From: a virus | Strand: one strand, 5' to 3' | IMG/VR virus record: IMGVR_UViG_3300047546_001496 | Coordinates: 1-64,000 of that record | Length of the DNA: 64,000 nucleotides | Shown: in pieces, positions 11,740-46,137 of the stretch | Layout of the letters: the number at the start of each line of letters is the position of its first letter | How positions within the stretch are numbered: the stretch's first letter is position 1 | Made by a program: the position numbers and the translations under genes | Notes under the pieces: model-generated | What the model saw: only the letters and a program-made list of their open reading frames with translations | What the model was told of the DNA's origin: nothing | Database searches by the model: none

Positions 11740-11807
11740 AATTTCACCTCTTTTTTTTTCTATAGAATAAAAAGGCGTGTTTCCTCATTGACAAGTATAC
11801 AGCCTTT

Positions 11808-25420: not shown

Positions 25421-26047
25421 TTAGTGAATCCAGTGTTGCGGAACCATATACTTAAAACCACTCTTTACTAAATGTGCAGTATGGTGATATGGTGGTGATG
25501 GTGGAAACACTATCACACTTCCCGCTTTTGGTTTTACAAAGAAATTATATGTTGATGGATTGGCCTTAGAAAAATCTTCTGCTGGAGTTGGTCCTTGAAT
25601 AGGTCCTTTAGGATCTCTAATTGTAAAAGAAATTTCTCCGCCTTCATAATCATCATTAAGATACATAACAAAAGAAACTTTTAATCTTTCGTCACCCTCT
25701 TGTTGATCAAAGTGTGCACCCATAAATGTGCCAGCCATATACTTTTTAATTGGATACATAGGAAATAGTTTTGGCTCTTCTGTAATTCCTTGAGCCTTTG
25801 CATAGTCTCTTGCTACATCATCAAATGCTTTTTGTAAAGTTTGATAAATGTAATCATTTTTTTCATCTGTACCCTCTGTAGGTTTGATGGTTTTGTCAGT
25901 TCCATACACATATGGTTGACCACTACATGCCATCCACTCGCCCCACTCATCCTGGTTATCTTTTTCAATTGCCTGAACAAGTTTGGCTGGATCTTCAATT
26001 ACATTTGTGTAATAATAAACTTTTTCTTCTAATATTTGTAGATTCAT
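25421..26047 (-). CDS. 2OG-Fe(II) oxygenase, prolyl 4-hydroxylase-like
   Basis: HFD...YLNDDYEGGEI...HTAHLVKSGFKY. Confidence 0.88.
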   Translation of the reverse strand: MNLQILEEKVYYYTNVIEDPAKLVQAIEKDNQDEWGEWMACSGQPYVYGTDKTIKPTEGTDEKNDYIYQTLQKAFDDVARDYAKAQGITEEPKLFPMYPIKKYMAGTFMGAHFDQQEGDERLKVSFVMYLNDDYEGGEISFTIRDPKGPIQGPTPAEDFSKANPSTYNFFVKPKAGSVIVFPPSPPYHHTAHLVKSGFKYMVPQHWIH

Positions 26048-26057
26048 CTTAACTCCT

Positions 26058-26714
26058 TTAGTATTTATTGTTATCATAAAAGCCTCTAACTTTTATGAAC
26101 CCAACTAAAACATATCTAATTGGACCTTCTCCTACATGTCTTACGCCATGCTCGTACTCTTCGTTCCCTGGAAATATAAGCAGTTCTCCTGGCTTTGGCC
26201 GTAAATCTATATTTTTATTTTTAAAAAATAGAGTTCCGTCCGTGTAGTCATCATTAATATATAGTATAGCAGCATATCTAATAGATGGGTCTGTATGCTG
26301 GTCGGTATGAGCCTTTAACTCTACTCCTTTTTGCATTCTTTGTAATGTTGCAAAGCCAGTCAGCATTAGATCTGGATGGTTGATTGCAATAAGTGCATGC
26401 ATTCTTGCTTGTAATGTAGCAGATATACTAGAGGACCCAATATCAAGATTTTTATCATCCCAGCCTTTTGTTATTTCATATTTGCCCTCAGCAACTAAGT
26501 TTTCTACATCATCTCTTCCAAATTTTTCTAAACAAAATCTAGCAAGACTTTCTCTATATGCCTTAAACCAAGTTTCTTCTGGTGTATTGTCAATAATCTC
26601 AAGAAGTTTATTTACTTCATCTTTAGATGCAAAATTACGAACAACAAGAATTTCCTCATGGGCTATTTCTGTATCAAATCCCGAATCATTAAATTCTTTT
26701 TCTAAAAATAACAT
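26058..26714 (-). CDS. 2OG-Fe(II) oxygenase, prolyl 4-hydroxylase-like
   Basis: HTD...YINDDYTDGTL...HGVRHVGEGPIRY. Confidence 0.88.
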   Translation of the reverse strand: MLFLEKEFNDSGFDTEIAHEEILVVRNFASKDEVNKLLEIIDNTPEETWFKAYRESLARFCLEKFGRDDVENLVAEGKYEITKGWDDKNLDIGSSSISATLQARMHALIAINHPDLMLTGFATLQRMQKGVELKAHTDQHTDPSIRYAAILYINDDYTDGTLFFKNKNIDLRPKPGELLIFPGNEEYEHGVRHVGEGPIRYVLVGFIKVRGFYDNNKY

Positions 26715-26715
26715 A

Positions 26716-27459
26716 TTAGTTTTCCACCTTGTATTGCTTACCTTCTTGATCTATTTTATATCCCTTTTTTAATAGATCTTGCCACTCTGCTCTTTCAATT
26801 TCCTGCTTGGCTCTTGTTTCTTTCATCTCGGCTGCCCAGGCATCTCTGAGTTCTTGTGGGTATGCATCTTCCTCACGATCATCCCAGAAAGATCCGATGG
26901 TATATCTAATTCCTGATTTAATTAATGTTACTTCATGCATATTATTAAACCCCCCATCAAATGCAGCAAGCATTCCTACTTTTGGTTGAATGCTTATTCC
27001 TTGACTTGGAAATTGCAAAAGACCTCCTTTAAAATTATCATTTAAATATAAAAATGCAGCATATCTACTTCTGGTAAATGCTCCAGAGTTTCCATGTTCA
27101 TCTGTATTGTCAGAATGAATTCTTGCATATGCGCCTGGCTCCCATTTTTGTGTATGATATCCAATTTGAGAAATTATCTTAGGGTCAAGATCATGAACAG
27201 ATGCAACTGCATTAATAATTCCCTGTTTAATTTGTGTAAAAATATCCGAAGGCAATCCTTCTGAAATTACATGTTCATCATTATCTTGTGGAAGAACAGA
27301 AGAGTATGATTCATAAAAAGATATTGGCATCCAATTAATGCTTCCTAATTCTGCATGCTTATCTAAAACCTTTATAAGTTTTGCAGAAGTTTCTGAATCA
27401 ATAAAGTTTTCATAAATAACAATATCTTTAGTTATTCTTTTTTTATTTTCTAAATTCAT
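26716..27459 (-). CDS. 2OG-Fe(II) oxygenase, prolyl 4-hydroxylase-like
   Basis: HSD...YLNDNFKGGLL...HEVTLIKSGIRY. Confidence 0.88.
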   Translation of the reverse strand: MNLENKKRITKDIVIYENFIDSETSAKLIKVLDKHAELGSINWMPISFYESYSSVLPQDNDEHVISEGLPSDIFTQIKQGIINAVASVHDLDPKIISQIGYHTQKWEPGAYARIHSDNTDEHGNSGAFTRSRYAAFLYLNDNFKGGLLQFPSQGISIQPKVGMLAAFDGGFNNMHEVTLIKSGIRYTIGSFWDDREEDAYPQELRDAWAAEMKETRAKQEIERAEWQDLLKKGYKIDQEGKQYKVEN

Positions 27460-28334
27460 CGTATCCTAACTCCTTCTGTAATAAAGTCTCTCTGTGGAGC
27501 ATATTGTTTCATCATTTCTTTGTGAAGTTCTGCCCAAACCTCTACTCCGTGTTCTTTTTCTTTTTCAAACCATTCTTTATCGCCTACATCATATTTTGTC
27601 CAATAAGTTCTTATTAAATACTTTTCTGTACCACTAGATGGGCAGACACCGTGAAGATACGGCTCATTGTTTTTAGATAGTACTTCTGGGTGCCCGCTTG
27701 GAAAAACAATCCAGTCACCTGCCACAGGTTTATATTTTATTAAATTACCATCAATATAAAAGTCAAGTTCTCCACCCTCATAATCATCATTAAAATAATA
27801 ATTAGCAGTTATTGCAAACTTATATCCTGGTTTTTTGATTGGCTCTCTCATATAATCAGAATGATAGCGCATTGCCATTGGTGTTGTCATGTCTTTACGA
27901 TATTGACATATAGATGGTCCATCATTTCCCCATAATGGTATCTCTTCTCCATTGTGAGTTTTAATAAGTTGTTCTTTATTAAAATTAATTTTTTCTTTAT
28001 ATTTAGAAATGTAGGCATCTGTAACTTTGTCGTAGCCTTTGCTTACCTCAAGTAAAAAATATTTTTGATCTTCTTGTATTTTACTTTTAGTTGGTAAATT
28101 GTTTATAGTTTCAAAATCAAATTTAGTAGGTTTATTGGTTCTTGGGTCTAATTTAACAAGATCTGGAAAGGCATGCTTTATATACTTACCAAAACCTTGC
28201 CAAGCAGACCATTCTCCTAAAATTCTATCTTCATTGTTGTCTGTAGATTCTTTAACTATTTCGTATAATTTCTGTGGATTATCCATAACATTTTGATAGA
28301 TAATTATATTTTCATATAGTTCTATTTCTTTCAT
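27456..28334 (-). CDS. 2OG-Fe(II) oxygenase, prolyl 4-hydroxylase-like
   Basis: HSD...YFNDDYEGGEL...HGVCPSSGTEKY. Confidence 0.88.
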   Translation of the reverse strand: MKEIELYENIIIYQNVMDNPQKLYEIVKESTDNNEDRILGEWSAWQGFGKYIKHAFPDLVKLDPRTNKPTKFDFETINNLPTKSKIQEDQKYFLLEVSKGYDKVTDAYISKYKEKINFNKEQLIKTHNGEEIPLWGNDGPSICQYRKDMTTPMAMRYHSDYMREPIKKPGYKFAITANYYFNDDYEGGELDFYIDGNLIKYKPVAGDWIVFPSGHPEVLSKNNEPYLHGVCPSSGTEKYLIRTYWTKYDVGDKEWFEKEKEHGVEVWAELHKEMMKQYAPQRDFITEGVRIR

Positions 28335-29092
28335 TAGTTTCTCCTAATTCCATTTTCTGGATCCCATGCTTTTATTACTTCGTCATTAGGAAAAATTCTG
28401 TAATATTGTTTATTATTGTCTGGCTTTATTTCTCCAGTATGTTCTAGTATTTCCCAAAAAAATGGGCAAGTATATCTTACTCCATTTTTAATTTTTGTAA
28501 CACCATGCACATAATTCATATCGCCTGGAAAAAAGTAAGCAGATCCTCTCTTTGGTTTAAACTGTATACCTTGGTTTGGAAAATATAATTCTCCACCTTC
28601 ATAGTCATCATTTATATAAAATAAACTTGCTATATCGTAATTAGGAAAATCGTTTGGAGTTCCTGCGTCTTCGCCTTGATGTAACTCTTTATCTGCATGG
28701 GGCATTTGAAATTGTCCTGGCAGCCACTTTACAATTGTTTGACCTGTAGGCTGAACCTTTACATTAAAAAATTTTTCAATTACTGGTTGTAGTTTATTAA
28801 ATAAACCAATTATAACTGGAACAATATTTGGATCATTCTGATTAAGAGATGGTGCGCTTGCAACTCTATCTTTCCAGTATTCAGCATCATATATTACAGT
28901 TCCATTTTCATTTTTATGGCTTTCTGTTATATCCCAAACTGTTATTGCTCTGGCTGCTTTATCTAAAAAGTCAACCTCTTGCTGAGTCATAAAGTTTTCT
29001 AGTTCAACAATATTTTCTGGGCCATGGCCAAAAAATCCTGATGGTGTGCTTGATGGCTTTCTAAATACTGTTATGGCATCTTCTGGCTTCAT
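28334..29092 (-). CDS. 2OG-Fe(II) oxygenase, prolyl 4-hydroxylase-like
   Basis: HAD...YINDDYEGGEL...HGVTKIKNGVRY. Confidence 0.88.
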   Translation of the reverse strand: MKPEDAITVFRKPSSTPSGFFGHGPENIVELENFMTQQEVDFLDKAARAITVWDITESHKNENGTVIYDAEYWKDRVASAPSLNQNDPNIVPVIIGLFNKLQPVIEKFFNVKVQPTGQTIVKWLPGQFQMPHADKELHQGEDAGTPNDFPNYDIASLFYINDDYEGGELYFPNQGIQFKPKRGSAYFFPGDMNYVHGVTKIKNGVRYTCPFFWEILEHTGEIKPDNNKQYYRIFPNDEVIKAWDPENGIRRN

Positions 29093-29100
29093 AATAACAA

Positions 29101-29580
29101 TTATATCACAGGAATATAATCCTGAGCCTTTGCCTTTATACCTAAGTTATTAAAGAATCTTTCAATATTAAATCTCCAATTATCTCTTCCAAAAGATGTT
29201 CCTATTCTAATACATAAAGTCTCAAAGTCTTCTTCAGATAATTTATCTTTAATTTGTAGAAGTGCATTAGTTATATCTATATAATTTTGTCTTACAAAAG
29301 ATGGGTCTCCCGCTTGATTTCTTTTTAACACCTTTGTATTTATCTTGCCCGATGGTTCATAAAGAGATACTGTTAGATAGTTTTTTGCAAATCCAGCATC
29401 TTTATACATTTCATAACCAGCAACTGCATCAACAACATTATCGTAAGAAATTATAGATCTCACTGGCGATTCTCCATCTCTGGCGACCGTAATAATATAA
29501 TGACTTATTTTTTGTTCTTTAGCATTAGAAATATATTCACTTATAATGTCATTATGGCTTGTTTTTAATTGATCGTTCAT
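29101..29580 (-). CDS. hypothetical protein within oxygenase cluster
   Basis: 159-aa ORF overlapping the previous stop codon. Confidence 0.65.
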   Translation of the reverse strand: MNDQLKTSHNDIISEYISNAKEQKISHYIITVARDGESPVRSIISYDNVVDAVAGYEMYKDAGFAKNYLTVSLYEPSGKINTKVLKRNQAGDPSFVRQNYIDITNALLQIKDKLSEEDFETLCIRIGTSFGRDNWRFNIERFFNNLGIKAKAQDYIPVI

Positions 29581-30287
29581 TTTATACCTGAATTGTCAAC
29601 AACATTTAACTTTAAACTTTTTACTTCATGGGAACCCAAAGAATTACCTTCTTCATCTACAGCCTCTCTATACCAGTCTGTCCATTCTCCAGAAGAGTTT
29701 ATTACTTGTGCTGCTTCTCCATATTTTACATTTGCTTGTTGTCTTTTTCTATCTGGATCTTGATATGCAACTATATTTAAAGTTGTATTATTTAAATCTG
29801 TTAAAGAAATTGGAATAATTGTTGCTATTGGCGTACCTGCTTTAATTATTGTTTCTTGATTTGCCTTTTTTGCTTTAAGTGCAAGTGGAAGCGGATTATC
29901 ATAAAAAGAAGTACTAATTAAATTTGACATCGTCTCAAAATCTTCATTAAAATAATTAACTGGATTAATAGTTAAAAGACTAATATTTTTACTTGTTCTA
30001 AAAATTAATGAAGTATTTAAACTAATTGAAGACTGTCCCCTTCCAGAATAGGCACCTTCTGGGCTACTAATTACTACATGTGTATGAGTTTGATCATTTA
30101 TTCCATCCCATGTAAAAACAATATCTTCTTTACAAGAAAGACTCCAGCCAATTACATTTGCCTGTGTTACTGGAAAACATCTATATGCATGTTTTTCTGC
30201 AGTTAAATCCATCCAGTCTCTTTTAATTGACATTGGTTGAATATTAAATTGACAACCATGTAATTTTTCTACAGTTATATCTAGCAT
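29577..30287 (-). CDS. DUF6065-like protein
   Basis: RDWMD...HAYRCFPVTQANVIGW motif as I recall it for DUF6065; not confirmed by search. Confidence 0.6.
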   Translation of the reverse strand: MLDITVEKLHGCQFNIQPMSIKRDWMDLTAEKHAYRCFPVTQANVIGWSLSCKEDIVFTWDGINDQTHTHVVISSPEGAYSGRGQSSISLNTSLIFRTSKNISLLTINPVNYFNEDFETMSNLISTSFYDNPLPLALKAKKANQETIIKAGTPIATIIPISLTDLNNTTLNIVAYQDPDRKRQQANVKYGEAAQVINSSGEWTDWYREAVDEEGNSLGSHEVKSLKLNVVDNSGIK

Positions 30288-30970
30288 TATTCATCTGCCC
30301 ACTTTGGATCATACATATCTGGTGTGTGATACTTTTTGCTATAATCCAACATGGTTACAATTGAATACTTGGTTCCAGAATGTACTGGCATTGCTTGGTG
30401 TGGATACATAAAGTTTGAAGGGAAAATATATAAATCTCCTGCTTTTGGCTTTATATTAAGATTTAAAAGTCTAAAATAAAGTTCTCCTCCATCATAGTCA
30501 TCATTGATATATGCAACTAAAGAAACTGTGCAATTATAAGAAAATCCATGATCATGATGTTCTTTAAAGTGTTGGCCTGGACCATACTTAATAAAATTAA
30601 ATGCTTCCCAATATTTAAGAGGCATAATGTTGTGATCTCTTCTATAATCCTCTACTGCTGGAGCCTGAACATCATAAACATCTTGCCATATCTTTTGTAA
30701 AAACAAAGAATCTTCACTAGTATCTGACTCAATATCAGTTTTTTTAAATTTAAAATCAAAACAATCACGGTACTCTGGCATTAGTTGTTGATATCCAACA
30801 TATGCTGGTAGCCAGTGATACCTTTTGCCTGATGGAGATAACTCACCCCATGGTGCTGGTTCTCCCAATGTACTTTCTAATCTATTAATAATATCCAGTT
30901 CTGGCTTAATTACTCCACGATAGCAAGTAATACCAAATCCTAAAGTTTCTTTATCTGTCCAGGTTGTCAT
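30287..30970 (-). CDS. 2OG-Fe(II) oxygenase, prolyl 4-hydroxylase-like
   Basis: HHD...YINDDYDGGEL...HQAMPVHSGTKY. Confidence 0.88.
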   Translation of the reverse strand: MTTWTDKETLGFGITCYRGVIKPELDIINRLESTLGEPAPWGELSPSGKRYHWLPAYVGYQQLMPEYRDCFDFKFKKTDIESDTSEDSLFLQKIWQDVYDVQAPAVEDYRRDHNIMPLKYWEAFNFIKYGPGQHFKEHHDHGFSYNCTVSLVAYINDDYDGGELYFRLLNLNIKPKAGDLYIFPSNFMYPHQAMPVHSGTKYSIVTMLDYSKKYHTPDMYDPKWADE

Positions 30971-30978
30971 TGTTACTC

Positions 30979-31758
30979 CTATTTATACTCTCTTCTTGTC
31001 CAAACTTTATCTTTGTATACCCCGCCATCTGGTTGGCGATAAAAGTTTGCGTTATCTACCATTTTAGCATATATAGTTGATGAATCAGAAATCTCAATCT
31101 GATGCTCCCAATTTTCTCTTAAAAATGGAAGTACTTGTAAAAATGGAGTTCCTGCTGGAATTGTTCCTTCCCACCCATCAATAATAAAAAATGGAAAACT
31201 GCCTAATAATTCAACCTTGTCTGAGTCTACAATTCCAGTAGTATTCATAAATGGCAAATCAAACCTATTCATTGGTGTCATAAATAAAGCACTATAACCT
31301 TCTGGTAATTTCATTCCCCAGTCTGGCATCCACGCAAAATGCGTTTTATAATATCCTCTTGGATGTTCAAATTGTGGCATAGGTGGTCTTACTGTACAAA
31401 AATCTTTATACATTGTATTTTCAACTTTAACATCTAAAGATCCAGCACTATTTTTGGTAAATATTAAATCACATGGTGTCTTGAAAACATATCCAGTCAT
31501 AAAGGCATCCATAATTGCAGGACATGCCTTCCATGTTGGTATCATTCCATAGTCGTCTACTGTACCCTCTTTAGGAAATGGACAAACTTCCTTTGGTGCC
31601 TTATAATATTCTCCGCTAATTGGGTTTTTAGCAAACCTATCTGCATCTTTATACCATTGTGGGATTTCTTTTTGTGTTGATGAAGGTGTAGACTTACTTT
31701 CTTTTGTAAGCCACGGTCTATAAGATTTAAATATTACTGGTTTATAATTAGTATCCAC
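30979..31758 (-). CDS. DUF6065/dUTPase-like beta-clip protein
   Basis: PQWYK...KACPAIMDA..GY, GIVDSD, IPAGTPFLQVLPF motifs. Confidence 0.5.
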   Translation of the reverse strand: MDTNYKPVIFKSYRPWLTKESKSTPSSTQKEIPQWYKDADRFAKNPISGEYYKAPKEVCPFPKEGTVDDYGMIPTWKACPAIMDAFMTGYVFKTPCDLIFTKNSAGSLDVKVENTMYKDFCTVRPPMPQFEHPRGYYKTHFAWMPDWGMKLPEGYSALFMTPMNRFDLPFMNTTGIVDSDKVELLGSFPFFIIDGWEGTIPAGTPFLQVLPFLRENWEHQIEISDSSTIYAKMVDNANFYRQPDGGVYKDKVWTRREYK

Positions 31759-32470
31759 CCTTATGTCCTAACTCATTAATATCAGTCATGATTACGACAC
31801 AATACTTTGTACCGCTCTTCATTGGAAGAGATGCATGCTCATAAATGTAGTTAGATGGAAAGATAGCGATATCTCCTACTTTTGGAGTAAGGGTATATCC
31901 ATCCAATCTTGGAAATTGAATTTCTCCACCCTCATAATCATCGTTTATATATATAACTGCAGAAACTGTAGCATTATATGCTGGACCATGATCTGCATGA
32001 ATATTGAAGTGTTTTCCTTCGCCCTCATACTTTACAAAATTAAATGCTTCATAATAGATAACATTAATTCCCCAATATCTTGCATAATCATCTATACAAA
32101 ATTTTAGTTTTTGATATATTTCTTCATGAAGATCAATAAGTTCGCCATTAAATTCATCTCTTGGACCAAGGTTTTCTTGCTTATATTTAAAATCTACACA
32201 GTCTCTTGCTCTCTTGATAGGGGTTGAAGAATTTGTTACTTGCGCTTCAGACCATTTATATCTTTTTGTTCCATCAAGATTTGACTCAAGAGTTTTTATA
32301 TATCTATCTGCATCATCTTGAGAAAATACATTTCTATAAATATTTAGGCCAAGTCCTGGATTTTCTACAACTATACCATTTGATAAAGTTTTTGTAGGAT
32401 ATCTATTTGATGCAGTTTCTGACCTATCTTTTGTAAACCAAGGATTTTGATTTTCATCATAAATTTCCAT
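31748..32470 (-). CDS. 2OG-Fe(II) oxygenase, prolyl 4-hydroxylase-like
   Basis: HAD...YINDDYEGGEI...HASLPMKSGTKY; close paralogue of 30287..30970 (shared EAFNFxKY, RDCxDFK). Confidence 0.88.
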   Translation of the reverse strand: MEIYDENQNPWFTKDRSETASNRYPTKTLSNGIVVENPGLGLNIYRNVFSQDDADRYIKTLESNLDGTKRYKWSEAQVTNSSTPIKRARDCVDFKYKQENLGPRDEFNGELIDLHEEIYQKLKFCIDDYARYWGINVIYYEAFNFVKYEGEGKHFNIHADHGPAYNATVSAVIYINDDYEGGEIQFPRLDGYTLTPKVGDIAIFPSNYIYEHASLPMKSGTKYCVVIMTDINELGHKGGY

Positions 32471-32495: not shown

Positions 32496-32933
32496 TTATG
32501 CTATTTCGCTAAAAGAAGTTCCATCCCAGTTATAAGAAAATCCTAACAAAAGATTTTGACTTGATGGTACCTTAAGCAAACTCATACCTGTCGCAACTGC
32601 TGCTGCATACATTTCTTTTTTTGGGCTATTTGTTGCAATTGCTACTCTAGCAACAACAGTATTATTAGATAAAAATGCATATAGGTCAAATGAATCTAGT
32701 TCTTCTTGTGTTGCACTTGCTAAATTTGGACCTGCTGTTCCACCAGAAAAAGATGATCCGTTCCAGGTCGCTCCATAAAGTGCTGTTTGTTTATATGAAC
32801 TTGCATCAATTGCTGTTATTGGTAAACCAGTTTCCCATGCAGAATCTAAAGTTTCCATTACCTCATTTTTTTGATGACTAAAAAATCCAATGACATCATA
32901 TACATTATCATTTTTTACTACAACTGCATACAT
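32496..32933 (-). CDS. small fibre-associated protein with internal duplication
   Basis: Two half-repeats (YAxxxxNxxV ... G/FxxWN/DGxSFS). Confidence 0.55.
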   Translation of the reverse strand: MYAVVVKNDNVYDVIGFFSHQKNEVMETLDSAWETGLPITAIDASSYKQTALYGATWNGSSFSGGTAGPNLASATQEELDSFDLYAFLSNNTVVARVAIATNSPKKEMYAAAVATGMSLLKVPSSQNLLLGFSYNWDGTSFSEIA

Positions 32934-33009: not shown

Positions 33010-33960
33010 TTAACAAGCACATGTTCTTCCTGGACAACATACGTTACATCTCCAGCAATATCCGCAGAAACAGCCTCCGAAAGATGGTGGGAAGAATGGG
33101 AAGTAAGGGAAGAATGGGAAGAATGGTGGGAAGAATGGGAAGTAAGGGAAGTAAGGGAAGAATGGTGGGAAGAATGGGAAGTAAGGGAAGTAAGGGAAGA
33201 ATGGTGGGAAGAATGGGAAGTAAGGGAAGAATGGGAAGAATGGTGGGAAGAATGGGAAGTAAGGGAAGAATGGGAAGAATGGTGGGAAGAATGGGAAGAA
33301 TGGAAAGAATGGGAAAAACGGCGGGAAGAATGGGAAATAAGGTGGGGTAGTGGTAACATTGTTTGTAGTTACACCAGTTGATTCTCCGCATGCATTTGTT
33401 AGATAAATTGTATATGTTTGTGATCCTGGAGATGATCCAGGGTCATTAGCAGCATATGATGTAGCAGATCCAGATATACCAGTATAACTTGATCCATCTG
33501 AACCAGTAATTCTGATCGATGTTATTGTGCTACCTCCAGTTGCTGATCCGCTTGGAAGAGTCCATGATATTGTATTTGTATTAGCAGATGTAGCAGATGC
33601 TGAAACTCCTGTAGCATTGCTTGGACTTGTTGTAACTGTTACTGAAGATGAAGCAGATGATGCTGCTGATGTTCCAGAAGCATTTGTTGCTGTTACTGTA
33701 AATGTAGGTGTTGCTCCTGCAGCAATGCCAGTTACAGTAATTGGGGATGATGCTCCTGATGCTGACTGACCAGTGCTTGCATAAACAGTATAAGAAGTTG
33801 CTGGAGGGGATCCTGCAGGCAATGCAAAAGCAACTGATACAGCACCGTCATTATATGCTCTACCAGTACATACGTTGGTTGGAACAACACTAATTGGTGG
33901 CTTTGGCTCTAAGAAGTCGTTTGCTGCTGCTGACTTTTTACCTACTTTTTTATTTGCCAT
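33010..33960 (-). CDS. fibronectin type III-like protein with Pro/Phe/Tyr repeat and Cys-rich C-terminus
   Basis: Two FnIII-like modules (SYTVYAS...FTVTATNASG; ISWTLP...YTIYLTNACG), then ([13 protein letters not shown])6, then [20 protein letters not shown]. Confidence 0.8.
   Translation of the reverse strand: MANKKVGKKSAAANDFLEPKPPISVVPTNVCTGRAYNDGAVSVAFALPAGSPPATSYTVYASTGQSASGASSPITVTGIAAGATPTFTVTATNASGTSAASSASSSVTVTTSPSNATGVSASATSANTNTISWTLPSGSATGGSTITSIRITGSDGSSYTGISGSATSYAANDPGSSPGSQTYTIYLTNACGESTGVTTNNVTTTPPYFPFFPPFFPFFPFFPFFPPFFPFFPYFPFFPPFFPFFPYFPFFPPFFPYFPYFPFFPPFFPYFPYFPFFPPFFPFFPYFPFFPPSFGGCFCGYCWRCNVCCPGRTCAC
33084..33347 (-). repeat. 39-bp coding tandem repeat (about 6.5 units; 13-aa PFFPPFFP[F/Y]FP[F/Y]F)
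   Basis: GAATGGTGGGAAGAATGGGAAGTAAGGGAAGAATGGGAA units read directly on the plus strand. Confidence 0.95.
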
Positions 33961-33986: not shown

Positions 33987-36587
33987 TTATTTAAGATCTC
34001 CGTAAACAACCCAAGTATTTGCTGCTCTCTTCAAGAGAGTTGCAGATGACCATTGTGTACGTAAAGTTAATCCTGGAGTAGCATTTACTGTTACTCCTGC
34101 GCCTGCTGCAATTGCAACTCCGCCTGTATTTGTCTGAAGAACATCGATAGAAGTTCCGACTGGGAAATTCAATGTCGAGTCTGCAGGAATTGTAACGTTT
34201 ACTGCTGAACCGCCAGTGTGAGAAACCTCAATAAGTGAGTCTCTTTCTGTTAGCGCTCCAAGAGTATACGCTGCTGTTTTCTGAATAATTGGTGTGCGTG
34301 AAGGTACACCTTCTTTTGTCTGTGTACCATCTGTAAAAATGATACCTGAAGAATCTACAGTAACTCCACCAGTAAATGATGGTGCTGCAAGGTTTGCCTT
34401 AAGTGCAAGGCTTGATGAAAGACCTGAGATCTTTGATTGATCGATTGCTGCTGAAGCGCTAATGTCTCCGTTTACAATTGTCCCATCTGCGATCATTGCT
34501 GATGTAACTCCACCAGTTGCGATATCAAGTGTTCCTGGTGTAGATTCTGTTAAACCAGAACCTGCTGTTACAGCCTTAGCAGCATTGAATGCTGCATATG
34601 TAACATTTGTTGTTCCAATTGTAATTGCTGATGTATTAGAGCAAACATATCCGTAACCTGAGTTTACTGTACCTTCAAGAACAAGAGTGAAGTCTCCACC
34701 CTTTAGTTCTCCATCTGGTGTATTGTCTGCATCTGTTGCTCTTGTCCATGAACCTGAAGCAACTACATAAATACCATTTTGTGTTTGTGTGGTTTGATCT
34801 TTTACGAGAACACGATCTCCAGCGATTACTGCTACGCCATCAATTGTTTGTGTTCCACTAAGTGTAATATTTCCTGTTGTAGCAACACGAACTGGCTGAT
34901 GAAAATTAATTCCTGCAGTTACATTGTCTACATATGCTTTTGTTGCTGCATGTAGGTCAGAACTTGGTGCACCTGAAAGTGTGAGTGCTCCTGTCATTGT
35001 TCCGCCAGCAAGTGACAACTTAGAATCAATCTGTGTCTGAATTGCTGATGTTACGCCATCAACATATCCAAGTTCTGTTGCTGAAACATTTCCAATAGAT
35101 GTTGTGCTTGGAAGAACAACTGTTCCTGTAAATGTTGGGCCAGCAAGGTTAGCCTTTAGATCAAGTGCTGTTTGTGTAGCAGTTGAAACTGGCTTATTAG
35201 CATCTGAAGTATTATCTACGTTGCCAAGACCAACCATTGACTTTGTGATACCTGAAACAGTACCAGTAAATGTTGGTGAAGCAAGATCAGCCTTTGCTGC
35301 TAAATCTGTTGTAAGGTTTGCAATCTTTGACTGTGCAATTGCTGCTGATGCATTTATATCAGCATTAACAATTGTTCCATCTGCAATCTTAGCAGAAGTT
35401 ACTGCTCCATCAAGAATTTTTGCTGTTGTTACAGAATCTCCAGCCAACTTATCTGCAGTTACATTGCTATTAACAATCTTTGCAGTTGTAACTGTGTTAT
35501 CTGTTGGTGTTCTTGTATCAGATAAGCGAGAATCATTTGTAAGTACAAGATCTGCTGTGTCTGCAATACCGTGTACGCTTGTTGTATCTAATCTATGTGC
35601 TTCAATATCTGCAGTTAGTGCTAAGGCTGTAGTATCTGCAATTCCATGCACATTTGTTGCTGAGTTATGGTTTGATACTGCAGTGTCTGCATAATCTTTT
35701 GTTGCAAGATCCTCAACATCAGCAATACCATGTACATTTGTTGTTAAAGCATTATGGTTTGCTACTGCTCCGTCTGCAGCATCAGAGGATGTATTGTCTA
35801 CATATTCTTTTGTAGCAGCATCATCAGCATTTATAGGTGCTCCGATAAGGGTAAGCATGCCTGTCATTGTTCCACCAGTTATAGGAAGTTTGCTGCTTAA
35901 TCCATTAGCCACAGTTGTTGCAAAGTTTTCATCATTAGCAATAGCATTTGAAAGTTCATTTAATGTATTTAATAGTTCTGGTGAACCAGCAACTATTGAA
36001 TTAATTCTGCCTTGTACGAATTCGGTTGTTGCAATTTTTGTTGTATTATCAGTTCCAGCCTGAGTAGTTGCTACTGAAGTAGAACCAAGATCTGCACCTG
36101 TTAATGTTTTATTTGTTAGTGTTTGTGTTCCAGTCAGAGTTACTACTGTTGAATCAATATCAAATTGTTCTGAGCCTGAGTTCCAGTCAATACCTACACC
36201 AGCAAGCGCTGATTGATCAACTGTTGCGTTTGAAACAGCATCTGCTACATAATCTTTTGTAGCAAGATCGTCTGTATCTGCAATACCGTGCACATTTGTA
36301 GTAGCATCTGTGTGATCGGAGAGATTGTTTGCCACTGTGGTAAAGAAAGCAGGATCGTCGCCAAGAGAGGCAGCAAGTTCGTTAAGTGTATCCAATACAC
36401 CTGGTGCACCATCTAGTATCGCATTTGCGTCTACATAATAGTTAAGTGCGGACCATGCTGATGATCCATTACCAATTTTAAATTTACCTGTGTCGGTTTC
36501 ATAACCGATTTCACCTGCTGCTAGAGTTGGGTTTGCTCCCGTCCATTGGGCTGCAGTTCCTCTGCGCTGTTGCATTCTTGTTGCCAT
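33987..36587 (-). CDS. long tail fibre protein with Mtd-like N-terminal domain
   Basis: MQQRRGTAAQW...GEIGYETDTGKFKIGNG N-terminus; repeated LDTLNELA, VHGIADT, ATKxYVD, TSAKIADG fibre motifs; C-terminal TWVVYGD domain. Confidence 0.85.
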   Translation of the reverse strand: MATRMQQRRGTAAQWTGANPTLAAGEIGYETDTGKFKIGNGSSAWSALNYYVDANAILDGAPGVLDTLNELAASLGDDPAFFTTVANNLSDHTDATTNVHGIADTDDLATKDYVADAVSNATVDQSALAGVGIDWNSGSEQFDIDSTVVTLTGTQTLTNKTLTGADLGSTSVATTQAGTDNTTKIATTEFVQGRINSIVAGSPELLNTLNELSNAIANDENFATTVANGLSSKLPITGGTMTGMLTLIGAPINADDAATKEYVDNTSSDAADGAVANHNALTTNVHGIADVEDLATKDYADTAVSNHNSATNVHGIADTTALALTADIEAHRLDTTSVHGIADTADLVLTNDSRLSDTRTPTDNTVTTAKIVNSNVTADKLAGDSVTTAKILDGAVTSAKIADGTIVNADINASAAIAQSKIANLTTDLAAKADLASPTFTGTVSGITKSMVGLGNVDNTSDANKPVSTATQTALDLKANLAGPTFTGTVVLPSTTSIGNVSATELGYVDGVTSAIQTQIDSKLSLAGGTMTGALTLSGAPSSDLHAATKAYVDNVTAGINFHQPVRVATTGNITLSGTQTIDGVAVIAGDRVLVKDQTTQTQNGIYVVASGSWTRATDADNTPDGELKGGDFTLVLEGTVNSGYGYVCSNTSAITIGTTNVTYAAFNAAKAVTAGSGLTESTPGTLDIATGGVTSAMIADGTIVNGDISASAAIDQSKISGLSSSLALKANLAAPSFTGGVTVDSSGIIFTDGTQTKEGVPSRTPIIQKTAAYTLGALTERDSLIEVSHTGGSAVNVTIPADSTLNFPVGTSIDVLQTNTGGVAIAAGAGVTVNATPGLTLRTQWSSATLLKRAANTWVVYGDLK

Positions 36588-40442: not shown

Positions 40443-41006
40443 ATGATTAACTTTATGAATAATAATAGGCAAATCATTGGCACACTCAGCATATTAGCAA
40501 TGTTTGGCGTTTGGTCAAATGCTGCTAATGCTTCTGAAAACCGATTAAGTGACAGTAAATCTGTCATGCTACAGGGATCTTTGATGGCCACGGAAGTGGC
40601 CAAAAGTGTTTCTATGGCTAAAGAAGATCAGTTAGAAAAATATAAAAGTGCTATAAATCTATCTGACAAAGACCTTAAAAACTTACTATCTTTAGTAGGT
40701 TTTGAAGGCGAAAATCTTAAGGAGGCTTGGGCTTTTGCTAAAAAAGAATCTAATGGAAGACCTTTAGCCCTTAATATTAGTAAAAGAACTGGAGATAGTT
40801 CTTATGGCTTATTTCAAATAAATATGATTGGCGACCTAGGTCCTGACCGTAGAGATAAGTTTAATTTAGAGTCCAATGTTGAACTCTTTAATCCAGTACT
40901 AAATGCTCAAGTAGCATACCACATGAGCAACGGTGGAAAAGACTGGACTGCATGGAAAGGCATTACACCAAAGGTGAAGTCGTTAATGCGTAACTTTCCC
41001 AATTAA
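40443..41006 (+). CDS. secreted SLT-type lytic transglycosylase
   Basis: Signal-peptide-like N-terminus (…NAANA); catalytic AKKESNG, SYGLFQIN and WTAW motifs; AAGGAGG RBS. Confidence 0.85.
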   Translation: MINFMNNNRQIIGTLSILAMFGVWSNAANASENRLSDSKSVMLQGSLMATEVAKSVSMAKEDQLEKYKSAINLSDKDLKNLLSLVGFEGENLKEAWAFAKKESNGRPLALNISKRTGDSSYGLFQINMIGDLGPDRRDKFNLESNVELFNPVLNAQVAYHMSNGGKDWTAWKGITPKVKSLMRNFPN

Positions 41007-41740
41007 TAGTTGATAAAATTATTATGGCTTCCGTGATAATATTTTATAGGAAGACGCTTATAATCATCTTTATCAAATAAATAGTAGAGGGCCTCCCCCC
41101 ACAAGGGGAGGTCTCCCCATCTATAGATATAAATATTATTTGAATTATCAACTTTTTCTATATATTCTTTTAATTCGTTATTTGCTCTTATTTTATCTAA
41201 ATTAAAACCTACTAAATTTGTATATGGTCCAGATGGACTTTTTGGACCTTTGTCTGTTTTTATATTCTCTAATGAAAAATTGTTTAGTCCTTTTGTAACA
41301 TTATCATTATCAGCAGACCATTCGCCATATACACATACATTATTTTTTAATTCGTCAAAAATATTATCAATGTTGCTTCTTATTAAACAATCATCATCAA
41401 TTCTTAATACTAAATTATATGCATCTAAATATTTTAAAAAATCTATAAACCAAAAATGACACATGTGCCTATATGCCCAACTAAATCCTAAGCCAGACTC
41501 TTTATCAAATTCTATATTATTTATGGGAGTAAACTCTGGTATTGTAATAAAATTTAAACATAAAGATGTTTTAGACCTAATATGTCTTTGATTTTCAAAA
41601 CTAATATTTCCTTCATGAAAAATTAAAATATCATAATTATCATTAATGTTTTCTTCAATAAATTTATTTCTAATTATAAGATTGCCATAGTCATAATTAC
41701 CAGAATAACCTTTGCATAAAGTGATTATTGCTTTTTTCAT
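41003..41740 (-). CDS. glycosyltransferase, GT15 (KRE2-like alpha-mannosyltransferase)-like
   Basis: YRHMCHFW, RIDDD (DxD) and IYIYRWGDLP motifs. Confidence 0.75.
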   Translation of the reverse strand: MKKAIITLCKGYSGNYDYGNLIIRNKFIEENINDNYDILIFHEGNISFENQRHIRSKTSLCLNFITIPEFTPINNIEFDKESGLGFSWAYRHMCHFWFIDFLKYLDAYNLVLRIDDDCLIRSNIDNIFDELKNNVCVYGEWSADNDNVTKGLNNFSLENIKTDKGPKSPSGPYTNLVGFNLDKIRANNELKEYIEKVDNSNNIYIYRWGDLPLWGEALYYLFDKDDYKRLPIKYYHGSHNNFINY

Positions 41741-42693
41741 TAATTTTCTCCTGGTATGTCTATATATTTTATACCATCTAAATTATACATCCAGTGTGGT
41801 CTGTTGCCTTCTATAAAATTAACATTAATTTCTTCTAAACCATCTACTCCATATATAAGTCTTTTATCTATTACTGGACTATATGTTTTTGCAGTTTTAG
41901 ACAAAAAGCATGCCCACCAACTAAAACTACTATTTGCTCTAAATACTGTTCTTGCAAAATATATTTTTAAAAAGTCTTCTAGCCAGTCAAACATTAGTCC
42001 TGGTCTATAGTTAGATCCTTCGGGATATCTCCATCCAAAATTTTCTATTTTTGGCCTATCTAAATGCCAAAGATTTTTATCATCATCTGAGATCCATAAA
42101 ATTTTATTTTTATCAAAATTAAATTTTTCAAAAGCATTAAAGTAAGAATCTTTTGAAATTACAGAATATCCTTGAGTATTATTTTTATTATAATTTACAT
42201 CAGAAATATCTCCTCTTCTTAAATGAGCAACATCATATGTTCCTTGTTTATTGCTCCAATACTTGTATGCTTCTGTATTTTTTACTTCATCTGAAAATTC
42301 AAAAACTTCTAATAAAAAATTTTTTGACATTTTACTATAAACATCAGATCCATAAGCGCATACGCTATCAAAAAATACTGGATCTAAATATTTTGCATAA
42401 TTATATGGAGCCTGTTCAGGATTTATTAAAAATGAATTTGGATAAATATCTTTTACTTTTTTTATTAGTGCATTTCTTGTATGATGTGCTGGATGACTCT
42501 GATTTAACTGATGTCTTAATTCATCATTTTCAGAAACTATATGAAATTGATTTTTAAATAATTTTGTTCCTTCCCAATCTGATGGCAGGACAAACTGAGA
42601 ACCTGTTAATTTATTGTATGTAGCGCCATAAGCATACTGGTGCATTCGATTGCCAAACCTGCCATGCCAATGTGATAAAAGTATAAAAGACAT
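41740..42693 (-). CDS. glycosyltransferase, GT11 alpha-1,2-fucosyltransferase-like
   Basis: GRFGNRMHQYA, HLRRGD, SDD and NSSFSWW motifs. Confidence 0.82.
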   Translation of the reverse strand: MSFILLSHWHGRFGNRMHQYAYGATYNKLTGSQFVLPSDWEGTKLFKNQFHIVSENDELRHQLNQSHPAHHTRNALIKKVKDIYPNSFLINPEQAPYNYAKYLDPVFFDSVCAYGSDVYSKMSKNFLLEVFEFSDEVKNTEAYKYWSNKQGTYDVAHLRRGDISDVNYNKNNTQGYSVISKDSYFNAFEKFNFDKNKILWISDDDKNLWHLDRPKIENFGWRYPEGSNYRPGLMFDWLEDFLKIYFARTVFRANSSFSWWACFLSKTAKTYSPVIDKRLIYGVDGLEEINVNFIEGNRPHWMYNLDGIKYIDIPGEN

Positions 42694-42700
42694 AAGAATA

Positions 42701-43726
42701 TTATATCTTAGACTTTATCCATTCATATGTTTTTGTTATTCCTTCTAATAATGACATAGAATAATCCCAATTTAATTTTTCTCTAATAAGTGTATTGTCT
42801 GAATTTCTACCACGAACTCCAGTTGGTCCATCTATGTGTATTTTATTTAATTTTTTATTTTCTATAGAACATGCAATATCCACTAACTCATTTATTGATA
42901 CACGCTCTTCTGAGCCTATATTAATTGGACCAGTAAAGTTAGATTTCATTAATTGTCTGGTTGCCTCTATACATTCATCAATATATAAAAATGATCTAGT
43001 TTGATTTCCATCTCCCCAAATTTCTATTGAGTCTGTAGCCTGTATTACTTTTCTACATATTGCTGCTGGAGCCTTTTCTTTTCCGCCCTGCCAAGTACCC
43101 TCTGGCCCATATATATTATGATATCTGGCTACTGCAACTGGTATATTATAATTTTTATTGAATGCTAAAAATATTCTTTCACTAAATAATTTTTCCCAAC
43201 CATACTCGCTGTCTGGTTCTGCAGGGTATGCGTCAGACTCTTTTAATCCTAAATTATCAATGTCCATTTGTTTATATTCTGGATATGCACAGGCAGAACT
43301 TGAATAAAATATTTTAGTTTTATTTATTAATTTTTCAGAATTAAGTCTTAGTTGTGCTCTTAACAAATTAAGATTAATTAGTGCAGAATTTTCCATAATG
43401 TTTGCATCATTGTCTCCAGTAAATATATATCCTGCTCCACCCATGTCTGCTGCAAACTGATACACCTCATCAAATGTATCTACTAACTGATATGGTATTT
43501 CTCTATAAAAATTTCCAGAGTATCCTTTAAATTTAATTACCTTTTCCATATTTTCATAATCTGAAAGATCTCTAATGATAAATTCATCAGCCTTCGTTTT
43601 AGAAAATGGTGGCTCTTTAATGTCAACACCTCTAACCCAATAGCCTTCTTCTTTAAGTCTATTTACCATATGGTTTCCAATAAAACCACCAGCGCCTAAG
43701 ACTAATGCTGTCTTCATTGTCATCAC
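42701..43726 (-). CDS. GDP-mannose 3',5'-epimerase-like NAD-dependent epimerase
   Basis: GAGGFIG, AADMGGAG, YSSSACAYP, YGWEK, GGKEKAPAAICRK, GVRGRNSDN. Confidence 0.88.
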   Translation of the reverse strand: MMTMKTALVLGAGGFIGNHMVNRLKEEGYWVRGVDIKEPPFSKTKADEFIIRDLSDYENMEKVIKFKGYSGNFYREIPYQLVDTFDEVYQFAADMGGAGYIFTGDNDANIMENSALINLNLLRAQLRLNSEKLINKTKIFYSSSACAYPEYKQMDIDNLGLKESDAYPAEPDSEYGWEKLFSERIFLAFNKNYNIPVAVARYHNIYGPEGTWQGGKEKAPAAICRKVIQATDSIEIWGDGNQTRSFLYIDECIEATRQLMKSNFTGPINIGSEERVSINELVDIACSIENKKLNKIHIDGPTGVRGRNSDNTLIREKLNWDYSMSLLEGITKTYEWIKSKI

Positions 43727-44277
43727 ATCGATTCTTTATCTTTTTCTTTTCTTATATGGGTATATAAATATTCTGGTCCTTCTGTAAAATACCAATGATC
43801 TGGCTTACAATAAAATAAAAATATATTACAAACCATATTATTATCTGGATCTGTAAATTCTTCTCTCCAGTGTTCTTGATCATTACCGTATGTCATTAAT
43901 GCATCATTTTCCATTAATGTGTATGGCTTTCCCTCTACCCATAAATCCCAAGGTGTCTTTTGAAATACACAAAAGTTGATATGGTATGTACAAGCATTAT
44001 CATCTTTATGCTTCCAGAGTTTTGCATCTTTACCCTCGTAAATTGACATTAAGCACCAGGAAGGTAGTATGTCGTCTTCTTCAAAATGTTCTCTTGCTAA
44101 ATCTAATAACTTATTATGTAAATCTTTAAGTTCTTCTGTGTTAGCCCATTGATGTCTGCCAAAAGAATTATCATAATTTGGCTGTGTTGACCACATCCTC
44201 ATGGCATATTGTTGTATTTTTTTTAAATCTTCTGCAGGCAAAATTGTTTTAACAATTTCAGGTTCTTTAATCTTCAT
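43723..44277 (-). CDS. 2OG-Fe(II) oxygenase (divergent family)
   Basis: LWKHKD...EHWRE metal-binding triad; cupin-like strand pattern. Confidence 0.7.
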   Translation of the reverse strand: MKIKEPEIVKTILPAEDLKKIQQYAMRMWSTQPNYDNSFGRHQWANTEELKDLHNKLLDLAREHFEEDDILPSWCLMSIYEGKDAKLWKHKDDNACTYHINFCVFQKTPWDLWVEGKPYTLMENDALMTYGNDQEHWREEFTDPDNNMVCNIFLFYCKPDHWYFTEGPEYLYTHIRKEKDKESM

Positions 44278-44556: not shown

Positions 44557-46137
44557 CTAACAAGCGCAATCTTGTCCAGGGCAGCAAACATTACATCTCC
44601 AGCAGTATCCGCAGGTACATGGACCAGTCGGTGTCGGTGTTGGTGTCGGTGATGGTGGGAAATACGGGAATGATGGTCCGACAGGTTCAAATGTTGGGAA
44701 GAACGGCGGGAAGAATGGGAAGTAAGGGAAGAATGGGAAGAACGGCGGGAAGAATGGGAAGTAAGGGAAGAATGGGAAGAACGGCGGGAAGAATGGGAAG
44801 TAAGGGAAGAATGGGAAGAACGGGAATGAAGGACCAGGTGCTGTTGTAAAACATTCTCCTAAACTACTATCCCAATAATATCCGCAAGCCTGGCATCCAC
44901 TTTGTGTTAATAACCATATATTTTCAGGAGCACATTGATTTGTAGGTGTTGGCGTAGGAGTAGGAGTTGGTGTAGGAGTAGGAGTTGGTGTAGGAGTTGG
45001 GGTTGGAGTAGGTGTAGGTGTTGGGGTTGGTGTAGGTGTAGGAGTTGGGGTAGGTGTAGGTGTTGGGGTAGGTGTTGGGGTAGGTGTTGGCGTAGGTGTT
45101 GGGGTAGGTGTTGTGCAAGATGGTGTTCCAGATTGAGGGGTAGATCCGCAAACCCATCCTATTGGAGGATAGCCGTTTGCATTTTCTTGCGTTGTGTACA
45201 AAGTAGCGCAATCAATATTAAATGGTCCAAAAGGTCCTTGTGGAGATCCATTTAACGCACAATATCCATAGTAGTTAGTAACAGAAACTGGTGTAGGTGT
45301 CGGAGTTGGAGTAGGTGTCGGAGATGGAGTTGGTGTCGGAGTAGGTGTTGGAGTTGGAGTAGGTGTCGGAGTTGGTGTCGGAGTTGGTGTCGGTGTTGGT
45401 GTTGGTGTAGGTGTTGGTGTCGGTGTTGGAGTTGGTGTTGGGTTTGAAGGCATTACGCATTCTCCCAACTGTTCATCCCAGACCAATCCACACTGAGCAC
45501 ATTGTGACGAACTTAATAAACTCCAGTCTCCATCACATATACTGGTTGGAGTAGGTGTTGGTGTCGGTGTCGGGGTAGGCGTTGGTGTTGGTGTCGGGGT
45601 AGGAGTTGGTGTTGGGGTTGGAGTTGAACTACACCCAATACCCTCATAGAACATTAATCCAGAAGAACCGTCTGAACACTTATACCATTTTTGTTGATAA
45701 TTGCTACATCCTGGGCAAGATCCGTCTGGACATGATCCAATATAAATACCGCCACTAACTACGCCATATGTAGCATCATTTGGACAAATTACTGTCGGAG
45801 TTGGAGTAGGAGTTGGTGTTGGCGTAGGAGTAGGAGTTGGTGTAGGAGTTGGGGTTGGAGTAGGTGTAGGTGTTGGGGTTGGTGTAGGTGTAGGAGTTGG
45901 AGTAGGTGTAGGTGCACAACTTGCAGTTCCTTCAGATACAGTTGCACCGCAAGCCCATCCATTTGGCGGGTATCCATTTGTATAATCAAACTCATTATAC
46001 AAAGTATTGCAAAGAGAAGTTACTCTATCTTGCTCTGTAGTTCCTTGTACATTTCTAGATGTATTATACGGACCAACTAATTGATATGTTCCTTGATCAC
46101 AATAGGAGTACCAAACCCCCGTTAGATAAAAGGTGAA
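44557..46137 (-). CDS. C-terminal part of (Pro-Thr)n / Cys-module / PFF-repeat fibre protein (in the -1 frame of 46122..47588)
   Basis: Frame is open from 46137 with no ATG; [18 protein letters not shown]... upstream of the annotated TTG (46002) is homologous to a module in 46122..47588. Confidence 0.75.
44695..44826 (-). repeat. second [13 protein letters not shown] 39-bp tandem array (about 3 units)
   Basis: GAACGGCGGGAAGAATGGGAAGTAAGGGAAGAATGGGAA units. Confidence 0.9.

Follow-up and report, generated by a model that had tools for sequence, protein, structure and literature searches.

We analysed the first 64 kb (64,000 nucleotides, referred to here as the window) of a 95,378-bp IMG/VR virus record from an uncultured lake phage, IMGVR_UViG_3300047546_001496 (G000; CheckV completeness 87%). 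Coordinates are window positions unless prefixed by G000 (whole record) or by L or G and a number (other loci and contigs). On the minus strand at 25421–32470 the window carries an array of ten open reading frames (ORFs), spaced by no more than 8 nt or overlapping by 1–20 nt, and composed of seven 2-oxoglutarate (2OG)-Fe(II) oxygenases of family PF13640, one DUF6065 protein (PF19541), one PHROG 7084 protein and one orphan. Our main finding is that this array is linked, across many phages, to a repeat protein of extreme composition encoded just upstream of it, which is the best candidate for its substrate. An initial annotation had described the interval as seven tandem oxygenases resembling prolyl 4-hydroxylases (P4Hs). 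All seven exceed the gathering cut-off of PF13640 (2OG-FeII_Oxy_3, 27 bits), with scores of 33.9–57 bits, and the count of seven oxygenases is therefore right, but the interval as a whole holds ten ORFs, including D7, D9 and U6 below.

The array members are named by transcription order. K and R types refer to the basic residue that completes the catalytic set, and the ratios of nonsynonymous to synonymous substitution (dN/dS) are pairwise values among 80 close relatives.

O10: 31748..32470, minus strand; PF13640 oxygenase, 44.6 bits; HDHK (K type); sister subfamily of O8; dN/dS 0.068
D9: 30979..31758, minus strand; distant DUF6065-like protein; phrog_7084, E 5.6e-30; dN/dS 0.136
O8: 30287..30970, minus strand; PF13640 oxygenase, 57 bits; HDHK (K type); dN/dS 0.061
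D7: 29577..30287, minus strand; DUF6065 protein, PF19541 94.3 bits (cut-off 26.6); dUTPase-like fold predicted by a model
U6: 29101..29580, minus strand; 159-aa orphan without a match to any Pfam, PHROG or NCBIfam family; carried by only some related arrays; dN/dS 0.123
O5: 28334..29092, minus strand; PF13640 oxygenase, 35.4 bits; HDHR (R type); a subfamily of its own
O4: 27456..28334, minus strand; PF13640 oxygenase, 36.2 bits; HDHK (K type); separate clade; the most variable member
O3: 26716..27459, minus strand; PF13640 oxygenase, 33.9 bits; HDHR (R type); dN/dS 0.086
O2: 26058..26714, minus strand; PF13640 oxygenase, 44.1 bits; HDHR (R type); two allelic types among relatives
O1: 25421..26077, minus strand; PF13640 oxygenase, 40.1 bits; HDHK (K type); 22-residue barrel insert, seen in the alignment of the seven oxygenases

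Linkage of the array to an aromatic-proline repeat protein

The features of the fibre module that concern the array are as follows.

33987..36587, minus strand: 866-aa fibre protein that heads the cassette; PF18454 Mtd_N, 56.9 bits, and many tail-fibre PHROGs
33010..33960, minus strand: 316-aa candidate substrate with an fn3-like N-terminal part, a P/F/Y tract and a Cys tail, as read from its translation
33084..33342, minus strand: 39-bp tandem repeat encoding the tract; 6.6 copies, Tandem Repeats Finder score 441, 94% matches
44557..46002, minus strand: second repeat protein and possible further substrate, as read from its translation
32496..32933, minus strand: 145-aa ORF between the repeat gene and the array; dN/dS 0.25; no match in Pfam, PHROG or NCBIfam; present, replaced or absent among relatives

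The tract encoded at 33010–33960 is built of 13-residue units, runs for about 90 residues and contains no amino acids other than proline, phenylalanine and tyrosine; the tail that follows it has 8 cysteines within 20 residues. Its fn3 match is weak (20.9 bits) in the window, but lies above the cut-off in relatives (33–43 bits). The product of 44557–46002 has both this 13-residue aromatic-proline repeat and the Cys tail, in addition to long (PT)n linkers, and the 39-bp repeat lies at 44695–44823 in its gene.

More than 160 related viral contigs carry the same array, and the pattern is therefore not due to chance. The gene order in 80 close loci is fibre, repeat protein, O10-D9-O8-D7-(U6)-O5-(O4)-O3-O2-O1 and then ribonucleotide reductase (RNR), with U6 and O4 being variable and extra members sometimes present. 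O10, D9, O8, D7, O5 and O3 are kept at approximately 70–96% identity in every close relative covering them; for O1 and O2 there are two allele types (40–60% or 70–90% identity), and O4 is either absent or 28–75% identical. A further 80, more distant loci, in which O8 shares 36–55% identity with that of the window, still have the array behind an fn3 protein, although its repeat unit is FFxPP or PFFP, in place of FFP/YFP, and its C-terminus may be a Cys-rich tail, an intein-like Hint domain, or nothing. When the close and distant sets were combined and the count was confined to arrays preceded by 3.5 kb or more of sequence, an aromatic-proline repeat ORF (the fn3 protein) was found just upstream in 96 of 96, in line with the repetitive substrate that the initial annotation had suggested. 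The linkage extends to lineages in which O8 has only 40–55% identity, the repeat unit differs and another C-terminal module has been exchanged for the original one. The reverse test used a DNA pattern of three FFxPPx units, which matched at least 120 viral stretches, and 40 repeat ORFs had 2.5 kb or more of downstream sequence; an oxygenase followed within 1.5 kb in 35 of these 40, and a DUF6065 gene in 32. Every cassette contains an O8-like oxygenase, including the minimal ones, which comprise the repeat ORF, the O8-like gene and DUF6065. Because of this constant pairing in many phages, the P/F/Y tail is the best candidate substrate.

The cassette was also found in G004, a contig of 204,904 bp (97% complete) that has no match to the portal or capsid proteins of the window. 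It carries two cassettes (loci L326 and L327). In the first, an Mtd_N fibre gene precedes the gene of a 135-aa FFxPP repeat protein, which is followed by an O8-like oxygenase (43% identity), DUF6065 and additional oxygenases; in the second, another fibre gene is followed by that of a 102-aa repeat protein and then by only an O10-like oxygenase. Both repeat proteins have Cys-rich tails. Since the cassette is present in G004 despite the lack of a portal or capsid match, this contig is the strongest sign that function, and not inherited synteny alone, underlies the pairing. Judged from these sequences, the cassette is mobile, occurring in at least one very different phage.

In many related phages, at loci such as L090:7828-9117 and L126:7900-9228, the repeat protein has no Cys-rich tail but an intein-like Hint domain of approximately 165 residues in its place. 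These proteins have a cysteine directly after the repeat and a C-terminus ending in HN, and their match to Intein_splicing (E 3.7e-6) is below the cut-off. Such an arrangement points to a self-cleavage or ligation reaction where the repeat ends.

The oxygenases and their DUF6065 partners

An alignment and profile of the seven array oxygenases (A1) contains invariant columns at the H and D of HxD, at the distal H, at Y-x-N-D, and at one G of the YxND[DN][YF]xxG strand, so that the motifs the initial annotation had reported in each copy hold at Y, N, D and G of the strand as well as at the metal ligands. The basic 2OG-binding residue sits 10–11 residues past the distal His in all seven, and alignment with hmmalign gave HDHK in O1, O4, O8 and O10 and HDHR in O2, O3 and O5, exactly the four lysines and three arginines claimed. 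Among distinct array oxygenases from related contigs, 685 of 689 retain HxD..H together with K/R. Pairwise identities of the seven are only 20–30%, and their N-terminal halves, which the initial annotation had described as strongly different, can barely be aligned. With complete Fe(II)/2OG-binding residues and, as set out below, purifying selection, all seven copies appear to be active, as the initial annotation had supposed.

Searched against solved structures, the A1 profile matched the Bacillus anthracis P4H (E 2e-12), P3H1 (prolyl 3-hydroxylase 1; 2e-9) and the PBCV-1 P4H (4e-7), with further matches to PKHD-type hydroxylases, PHD2 and the Chlamydomonas P4H; no AlkB-type match was prominent in this search, ALKBH8 coming last (E 0.007). 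An AlphaFold2 model of O8, built with 60 homologues, had a pLDDT of 95.4, and nearly all of the Foldseek matches listed for it were prolyl hydroxylases, with E-values from 1.5e-11 downwards in significance. The best was a Pseudomonas putida P4H solved with EF-Tu (E 1.5e-11), and others, between 1e-11 and 1e-9, included the Dictyostelium PHD, the Chlamydomonas P4H, PHD2, PBCV-1 vCPH and human C-P4H-II. These results suggest that the seven are prolyl-hydroxylase-like, apparently active oxygenases, for O8 on the strength of a fold model as well. Identification as animal collagen P4H, an alpha2-beta2 enzyme with an N-terminal domain for binding peptide substrates and PDI as its beta subunit, was rejected: the proteins are 218–292 aa long with a single Pfam domain, and as single-domain proteins they are therefore P4H-like, and not collagen P4Hs. 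Some relatives (P0013 and others) are fusions of two to five oxygenase-like stretches, such as a protein of 1194 aa with five, and multi-oxygenase sets therefore exist also as single polypeptides.

The copies within the array are of ancient origin. A search of 1.84 billion representatives recovered 19,188 relatives of the oxygenases, and each of the seven has its own closer relatives on other contigs, at 40–75% identity, compared to the 20–30% that it shares with its array neighbours. In the trees the seven are scattered over at least five old subfamilies: O2, O3 and O5, all of R type, share one clade with two PF13640 genes from outside the window, O8 and O10 form sister subfamilies, O1 and O4 stand apart, and the division into K and R types matches the deepest split. 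An approximately unbiased (AU) test rejected a single clade for the seven (p 2e-6). Recent tandem duplication was thus rejected on the evidence of the closer kin on other contigs and the AU test, and the term 'tandem' in the initial annotation is correct for the position of the genes but not in the sense of recent duplicates, which the subfamilies, trees and AU test all contradict. Relaxed selection, for which a dN/dS near 1 would be expected, was likewise rejected, as every array gene has a value of 0.06–0.14, compared to 0.05 for the neighbouring RNR. Strong purifying selection, together with orthologues proper to each copy, therefore argues against both redundancy and decay, and recent redundancy of the copies is unlikely on these sequence comparisons.

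The AlphaFold2 model of D7 (pLDDT 84.4) resembled more than 12 dUTPases (VIA Z 10.6–8.2, approximately 12% identity; Foldseek E 8e-5 to about 1e-4). D7 has no dUTPase match in Pfam or NCBIfam, and the comparison with dUTPases is one of fold. An alignment of the D7 family (A2) contains invariant R, W, C, P and G residues, including Cys37. D9 has no Pfam match but belongs to the same PHROG 7084 as D7, and an hhalign comparison of D9 with the D7 family gave a weak match (E 6.9e-4 over 130 columns, probability 27%), indicating that D9 is probably a distant DUF6065 relative. The possibility that DUF6065 is itself a cupin or 2OG oxygenase was rejected, given an hhalign probability of 0.1% to A1 and the dUTPase-like fold. 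In related cassettes, D7 is the constant partner of the O8-type oxygenase. DUF6065 proteins in bacterial chromosomes (Sphingomonas, Lysobacterales, Phycisphaerales; 20–30% identity) have no oxygenase or repeat neighbour, and therefore offer no functional clue. A tblastn search with D7 gave no cyanophage match, and a search with D9 gave one cyanophage record among 50. D9-like DUF6065 proteins also occur in haloarchaeal tailed viruses, for example Halorubrum virus VOLN27B (L329), where the gene lies between tail/baseplate genes and RNR, with no annotated oxygenase; the RNR neighbourhood is as in the window.

Proposed substrate and role of the cassette

We propose that the interval supplies the enzymes of a conserved accessory cassette of phage tail fibres, which would consist of an Mtd_N-type fibre gene, the fn3/aromatic-proline protein and the oxygenase array interleaved with DUF6065, and whose genes would be co-transcribed and probably translationally coupled. 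With 2OG and O2 as cosubstrates, the enzymes would hydroxylate prolines within proteins, most probably those of the P/F/Y tract encoded at 33010–33960 and of its copy in 44557–46002. The paralogues would be non-redundant, serving different proline contexts, the 3- as opposed to the 4-position, or a second hydroxylation. Hydroxylation could make an extremely hydrophobic tract soluble or rigid, and could offer sites for the glycosylation genes located elsewhere in the window (41003–43726), while DUF6065 may be an obligate partner, acting as a substrate adaptor or as a second modifying enzyme. We give an even chance to the core of this proposal, namely that the cassette oxygenases hydroxylate prolines of the adjacent P/F/Y tract as a fibre accessory system. 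More tentative is its fuller form, in which a dedicated pathway heavily hydroxylates, and perhaps glycosylates, an aromatic/proline polymer on a fibre accessory protein, giving the virion a hydroxyproline-rich adhesive or spacer comparable to extensin or mussel foot protein, with a position or regiochemistry of its own for each subfamily and with DUF6065 as a new partner enzyme or adaptor; this is possible, and we would not put it higher than that.

If true, the proposal would supply a first natural substrate for 'P4H' genes, which count among the commonest genes in aquatic viromes that have yet to be explained, would demonstrate post-translational hydroxylation of phage virion proteins, and would provide specificities for at least five subfamilies and a context for DUF6065. 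The linked repeat protein, with its extreme composition, makes the open P4H question experimentally testable. If refuted, the locus would be one more example of an already described type of phage oxygenase cluster.

Several observations weigh against the proposal. The case for proline hydroxylation is drawn from sequences, gene context and the fold model of O8, one of the seven. Most of the linkage comes from contigs with a shared backbone, where synteny could explain much, and only the G004 group is independent. Five of the 40 repeat ORFs have no oxygenase behind them, although two of these (L190, L224) are in loci where another repeat ORF does precede an oxygenase. The one characterised viral P4H, that of PBCV-1, belongs to a virus in whose virions hydroxyproline was undetected (PMC7019647), and a comparable array in Synechococcus phage Syn9 has been read as a pathway of secondary-metabolite synthesis (PMC2938197). 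Finally, arrays contain between one and nine oxygenases, most often six with two DUF6065 genes, and the number of oxygenases is correlated neither with tract length (rho 0.16) nor with the count of prolines (rho 0.23, p 0.09) or of proline contexts (rho -0.26), so that no dose relation between enzyme number and tract was found; a correlation with tyrosine count (rho 0.33, p 0.012) is uncorrected and not phylogenetically independent. The division of labour suggested by the initial annotation is thus favoured by the old, separate subfamilies and by their low dN/dS, but in its simple form it is at odds with an array size uncoupled from the tract.

The lack of a relation between array size and tract also suits a different view, in which the oxygenases act on proteins other than the repeat protein, for example on those of the virion (the (PT)n-linked fibres at 44557–47588 or the Mtd_N fibre) or of the host (EF-Tu or ribosomal proteins, which bacterial and eukaryotic relatives modify), and are adjacent to the repeat gene because of shared late expression. 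That the closest structural match of O8 was solved with EF-Tu, that the window encodes several further proline-rich proteins, and that two more PF13640 genes are located away from the fibre module are all consistent with this. However, what always lies next to the array, in diverged lineages as well as in G004, is the repeat gene and not the (PT)n proteins, and the minimal cassettes are reduced to the repeat ORF, an O8-like oxygenase and DUF6065. We regard other substrates as unlikely, while still giving them a real share of the probability.

A small-molecule or short-peptide tailoring pathway, with the fibre genes as unrelated neighbours, has a precedent in the array of Syn9, for which Iyer, Abhiman, de Souza and Aravind (2010) described ten dioxygenases in tandem, of at least five families, with a dUTPase-fold protein bearing a conserved cysteine (PMC2938197). 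The window shares this architecture, having tandem, divergent 2OG dioxygenase subfamilies (at least five) and a dUTPase-fold protein, DUF6065, with its invariant Cys37. The repeat ORFs of the G004 type, at only 102–135 aa, resemble precursor peptides, and versions of 60–135 aa exist in some other phages. The two systems differ, however, in that the JmjC/MINA member and the tryptophan halogenases of Syn9 were not found among the ten ORFs in Pfam or PHROG, in that Syn9 is a cyanomyovirus and the virus studied here is of siphovirus type and probably an actinophage, and in that no substrate beyond secondary metabolites was proposed for Syn9, whereas a repeat protein is constantly linked to the present array. 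Cyanophage oxygenases found with O8 by tblastn are only about 30–36% identical to it. Furthermore, Pfam and PHROG searches revealed no halogenase, non-ribosomal peptide synthetase, ATP-grasp protein, methyltransferase, transporter or protease in the interval, all seven enzymes are of the protein-hydroxylase type PF13640, with the O8 model matching protein prolyl hydroxylases, and the cassette lies inside the virion module, between fibres and portal. A metabolite pathway is therefore rather improbable in our estimate. The related analogy drawn by the initial annotation, to the tailoring of ribosomally synthesized and post-translationally modified peptides, is a poor fit here: the candidate is a 316-aa fn3 protein in a tail-fibre module and not a short leader-core precursor, and Pfam and PHROG searches of the array ORFs revealed neither a leader peptide nor a recognition element, protease or exporter for it.

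It is also conceivable that the oxygenases are redundant isoenzymes, retained for dosage or for flexibility in host range with no division of labour, as might be suggested by the variation of O1, O2 and O4 in allele or presence among close relatives and by the missing dose relation with the tract. The low identity between copies (20–30%), the unalignable N-terminal halves, the retention of O10, D9, O8, D7, O5 and O3 at approximately 70–96% in every close relative covering them, the dN/dS of 0.06–0.14 for every gene, and the agreement of the K and R types with the deepest tree split make redundancy improbable. Lastly, a role as auxiliary metabolic genes, in 2OG drawdown or DNA repair and with no dedicated phage protein as substrate, is the reading given for multi-copy cyanophage oxygenases (PMC3037559, PMC9602691), but it is very unlikely here, given that the best profile matches are prolyl hydroxylases with ALKBH8 in last place, that the consumption of 2OG does not need seven old, separately conserved subfamilies, and that the location is structural and not metabolic.

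Comparable systems, host and further genes

The hydroxylation proposed for the cassette has partial counterparts in other systems. Plant hydroxyproline-rich glycoproteins are repetitive proline-rich proteins of the cell wall on which several P4H isoforms act, followed by O-glycosylation of hydroxyproline. By analogy, the proposal likewise involves multiple P4H-like enzymes and a repetitive proline-rich structural substrate, with genes for sugar nucleotides and glycosyltransferase-like proteins nearby (41003–43726), and the O8 fold model has the Chlamydomonas P4H among its top matches; the repeats here are aromatic (FFP/YFP), however, and not SPPPP, and no hydroxyproline glycosyltransferase was identified. 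The PBCV-1 P4H (A085R, vCPH, PDB 5c5t) is, like the array oxygenases, a small single-domain viral enzyme with a 2OG-binding Lys, encoded by a virus that also has proline-rich repeats, but it is a single enzyme with about 17% identity, in contrast to the seven with DUF6065 partners described here. The PBCV-1 repeats are reportedly of PAPK type and not genetically adjacent to the P4H, a finding attributed to Eriksson et al. 1999. The closest solved relative by sequence is the B. anthracis P4H (PDB 3itq, 5hv0, 5iax; E 2e-12 with the profile and 1e-6 with O8 alone), which shares the HxD, the Y-x-N-D...GG strand and the Lys. It is a cellular, single-gene enzyme, and only the C-terminal barrel aligns, the N-terminal halves being unrelated.

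T4-like cyanophages also have many divergent paralogues of PF13640 type in one phage, with 1–5 2OG-Fe(II) oxygenases per genome and 24 in S-SCSM1, which are functionally untested and have been interpreted as metabolic (PMC3037559, PMC9602691). In S-SCSM1 (L328, 211796-224257), two annotated clusters of 2OG-Fe(II) oxygenases flank tail-fibre genes, and no aromatic-proline repeat protein was seen in the region examined. Few genes annotated as 'auxiliary' in aquatic viromes are more abundant than those of P4H-like 2OG oxygenases, whose use to viruses has been called cryptic (PMC9301287). Papers on the substrates of PasI and PiuC were also sought, with no useful result. Our search of the literature found no account of a constant, portable link between such an array and an aromatic-proline repeat protein in a fibre module. 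The architecture of the array has been known since 2010, and the linked aromatic-proline candidate substrate is the new part.

The structural genes in the window are of siphovirus type, and include a 3030-aa tape measure, a portal, a protease and a capsid gene. The nearest cultured relatives of the portal are those of Streptomyces phages (46–49% identity), and a WhiB-family gene (44.6 bits) is located beyond the window at G000 87585–87758 on the minus strand. On account of the WhiB gene and the portal similarity, the host is probably a freshwater actinobacterium. Megablast of 25421–32470 against cultured phages gave no match. Near-identical copies of the array are present on five short contigs (L278–L282) from the same lake series that were binned into metagenome-assembled genomes (MAGs), with conflicting labels from four unrelated phyla (Beijerinckiaceae, Acidimicrobiaceae, Luteolibacter, Flavobacteriales). 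The likeliest explanation is that these contigs come from phages and were wrongly binned with bacterial genomes, and as their labels disagree they were set aside for host assignment. Promoter and terminator scans were uninformative, with promoter-like sites being rarer than in shuffled sequence.

The two additional PF13640 oxygenases of this record are located outside the window on the plus strand, at G000 70830–71579 and 75700–76383 (the same genes as L001:6830-7579 and 11700-12383), distant from the fibre module, and they group with the R-type clade. After the second repeat protein, the minus strand at 41003–43726 encodes a sugar-nucleotide epimerase/dehydratase (PF01370, PF16363) and two glycosyltransferase-like ORFs, one with a weak GT15 match and the other with a match to a glycosyltransferase PHROG, and these genes may provide a glycosylation step for the fibres. 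Directly downstream of the second repeat protein, a 184-aa ORF (43723–44277, minus strand) matches PHROG 2954 ('ferrochelatase', E 3e-13) and has no match in Pfam or to A1. With its H-x-D ... H-like spacing, it may encode a very divergent or degenerate double-stranded beta-helix protein.

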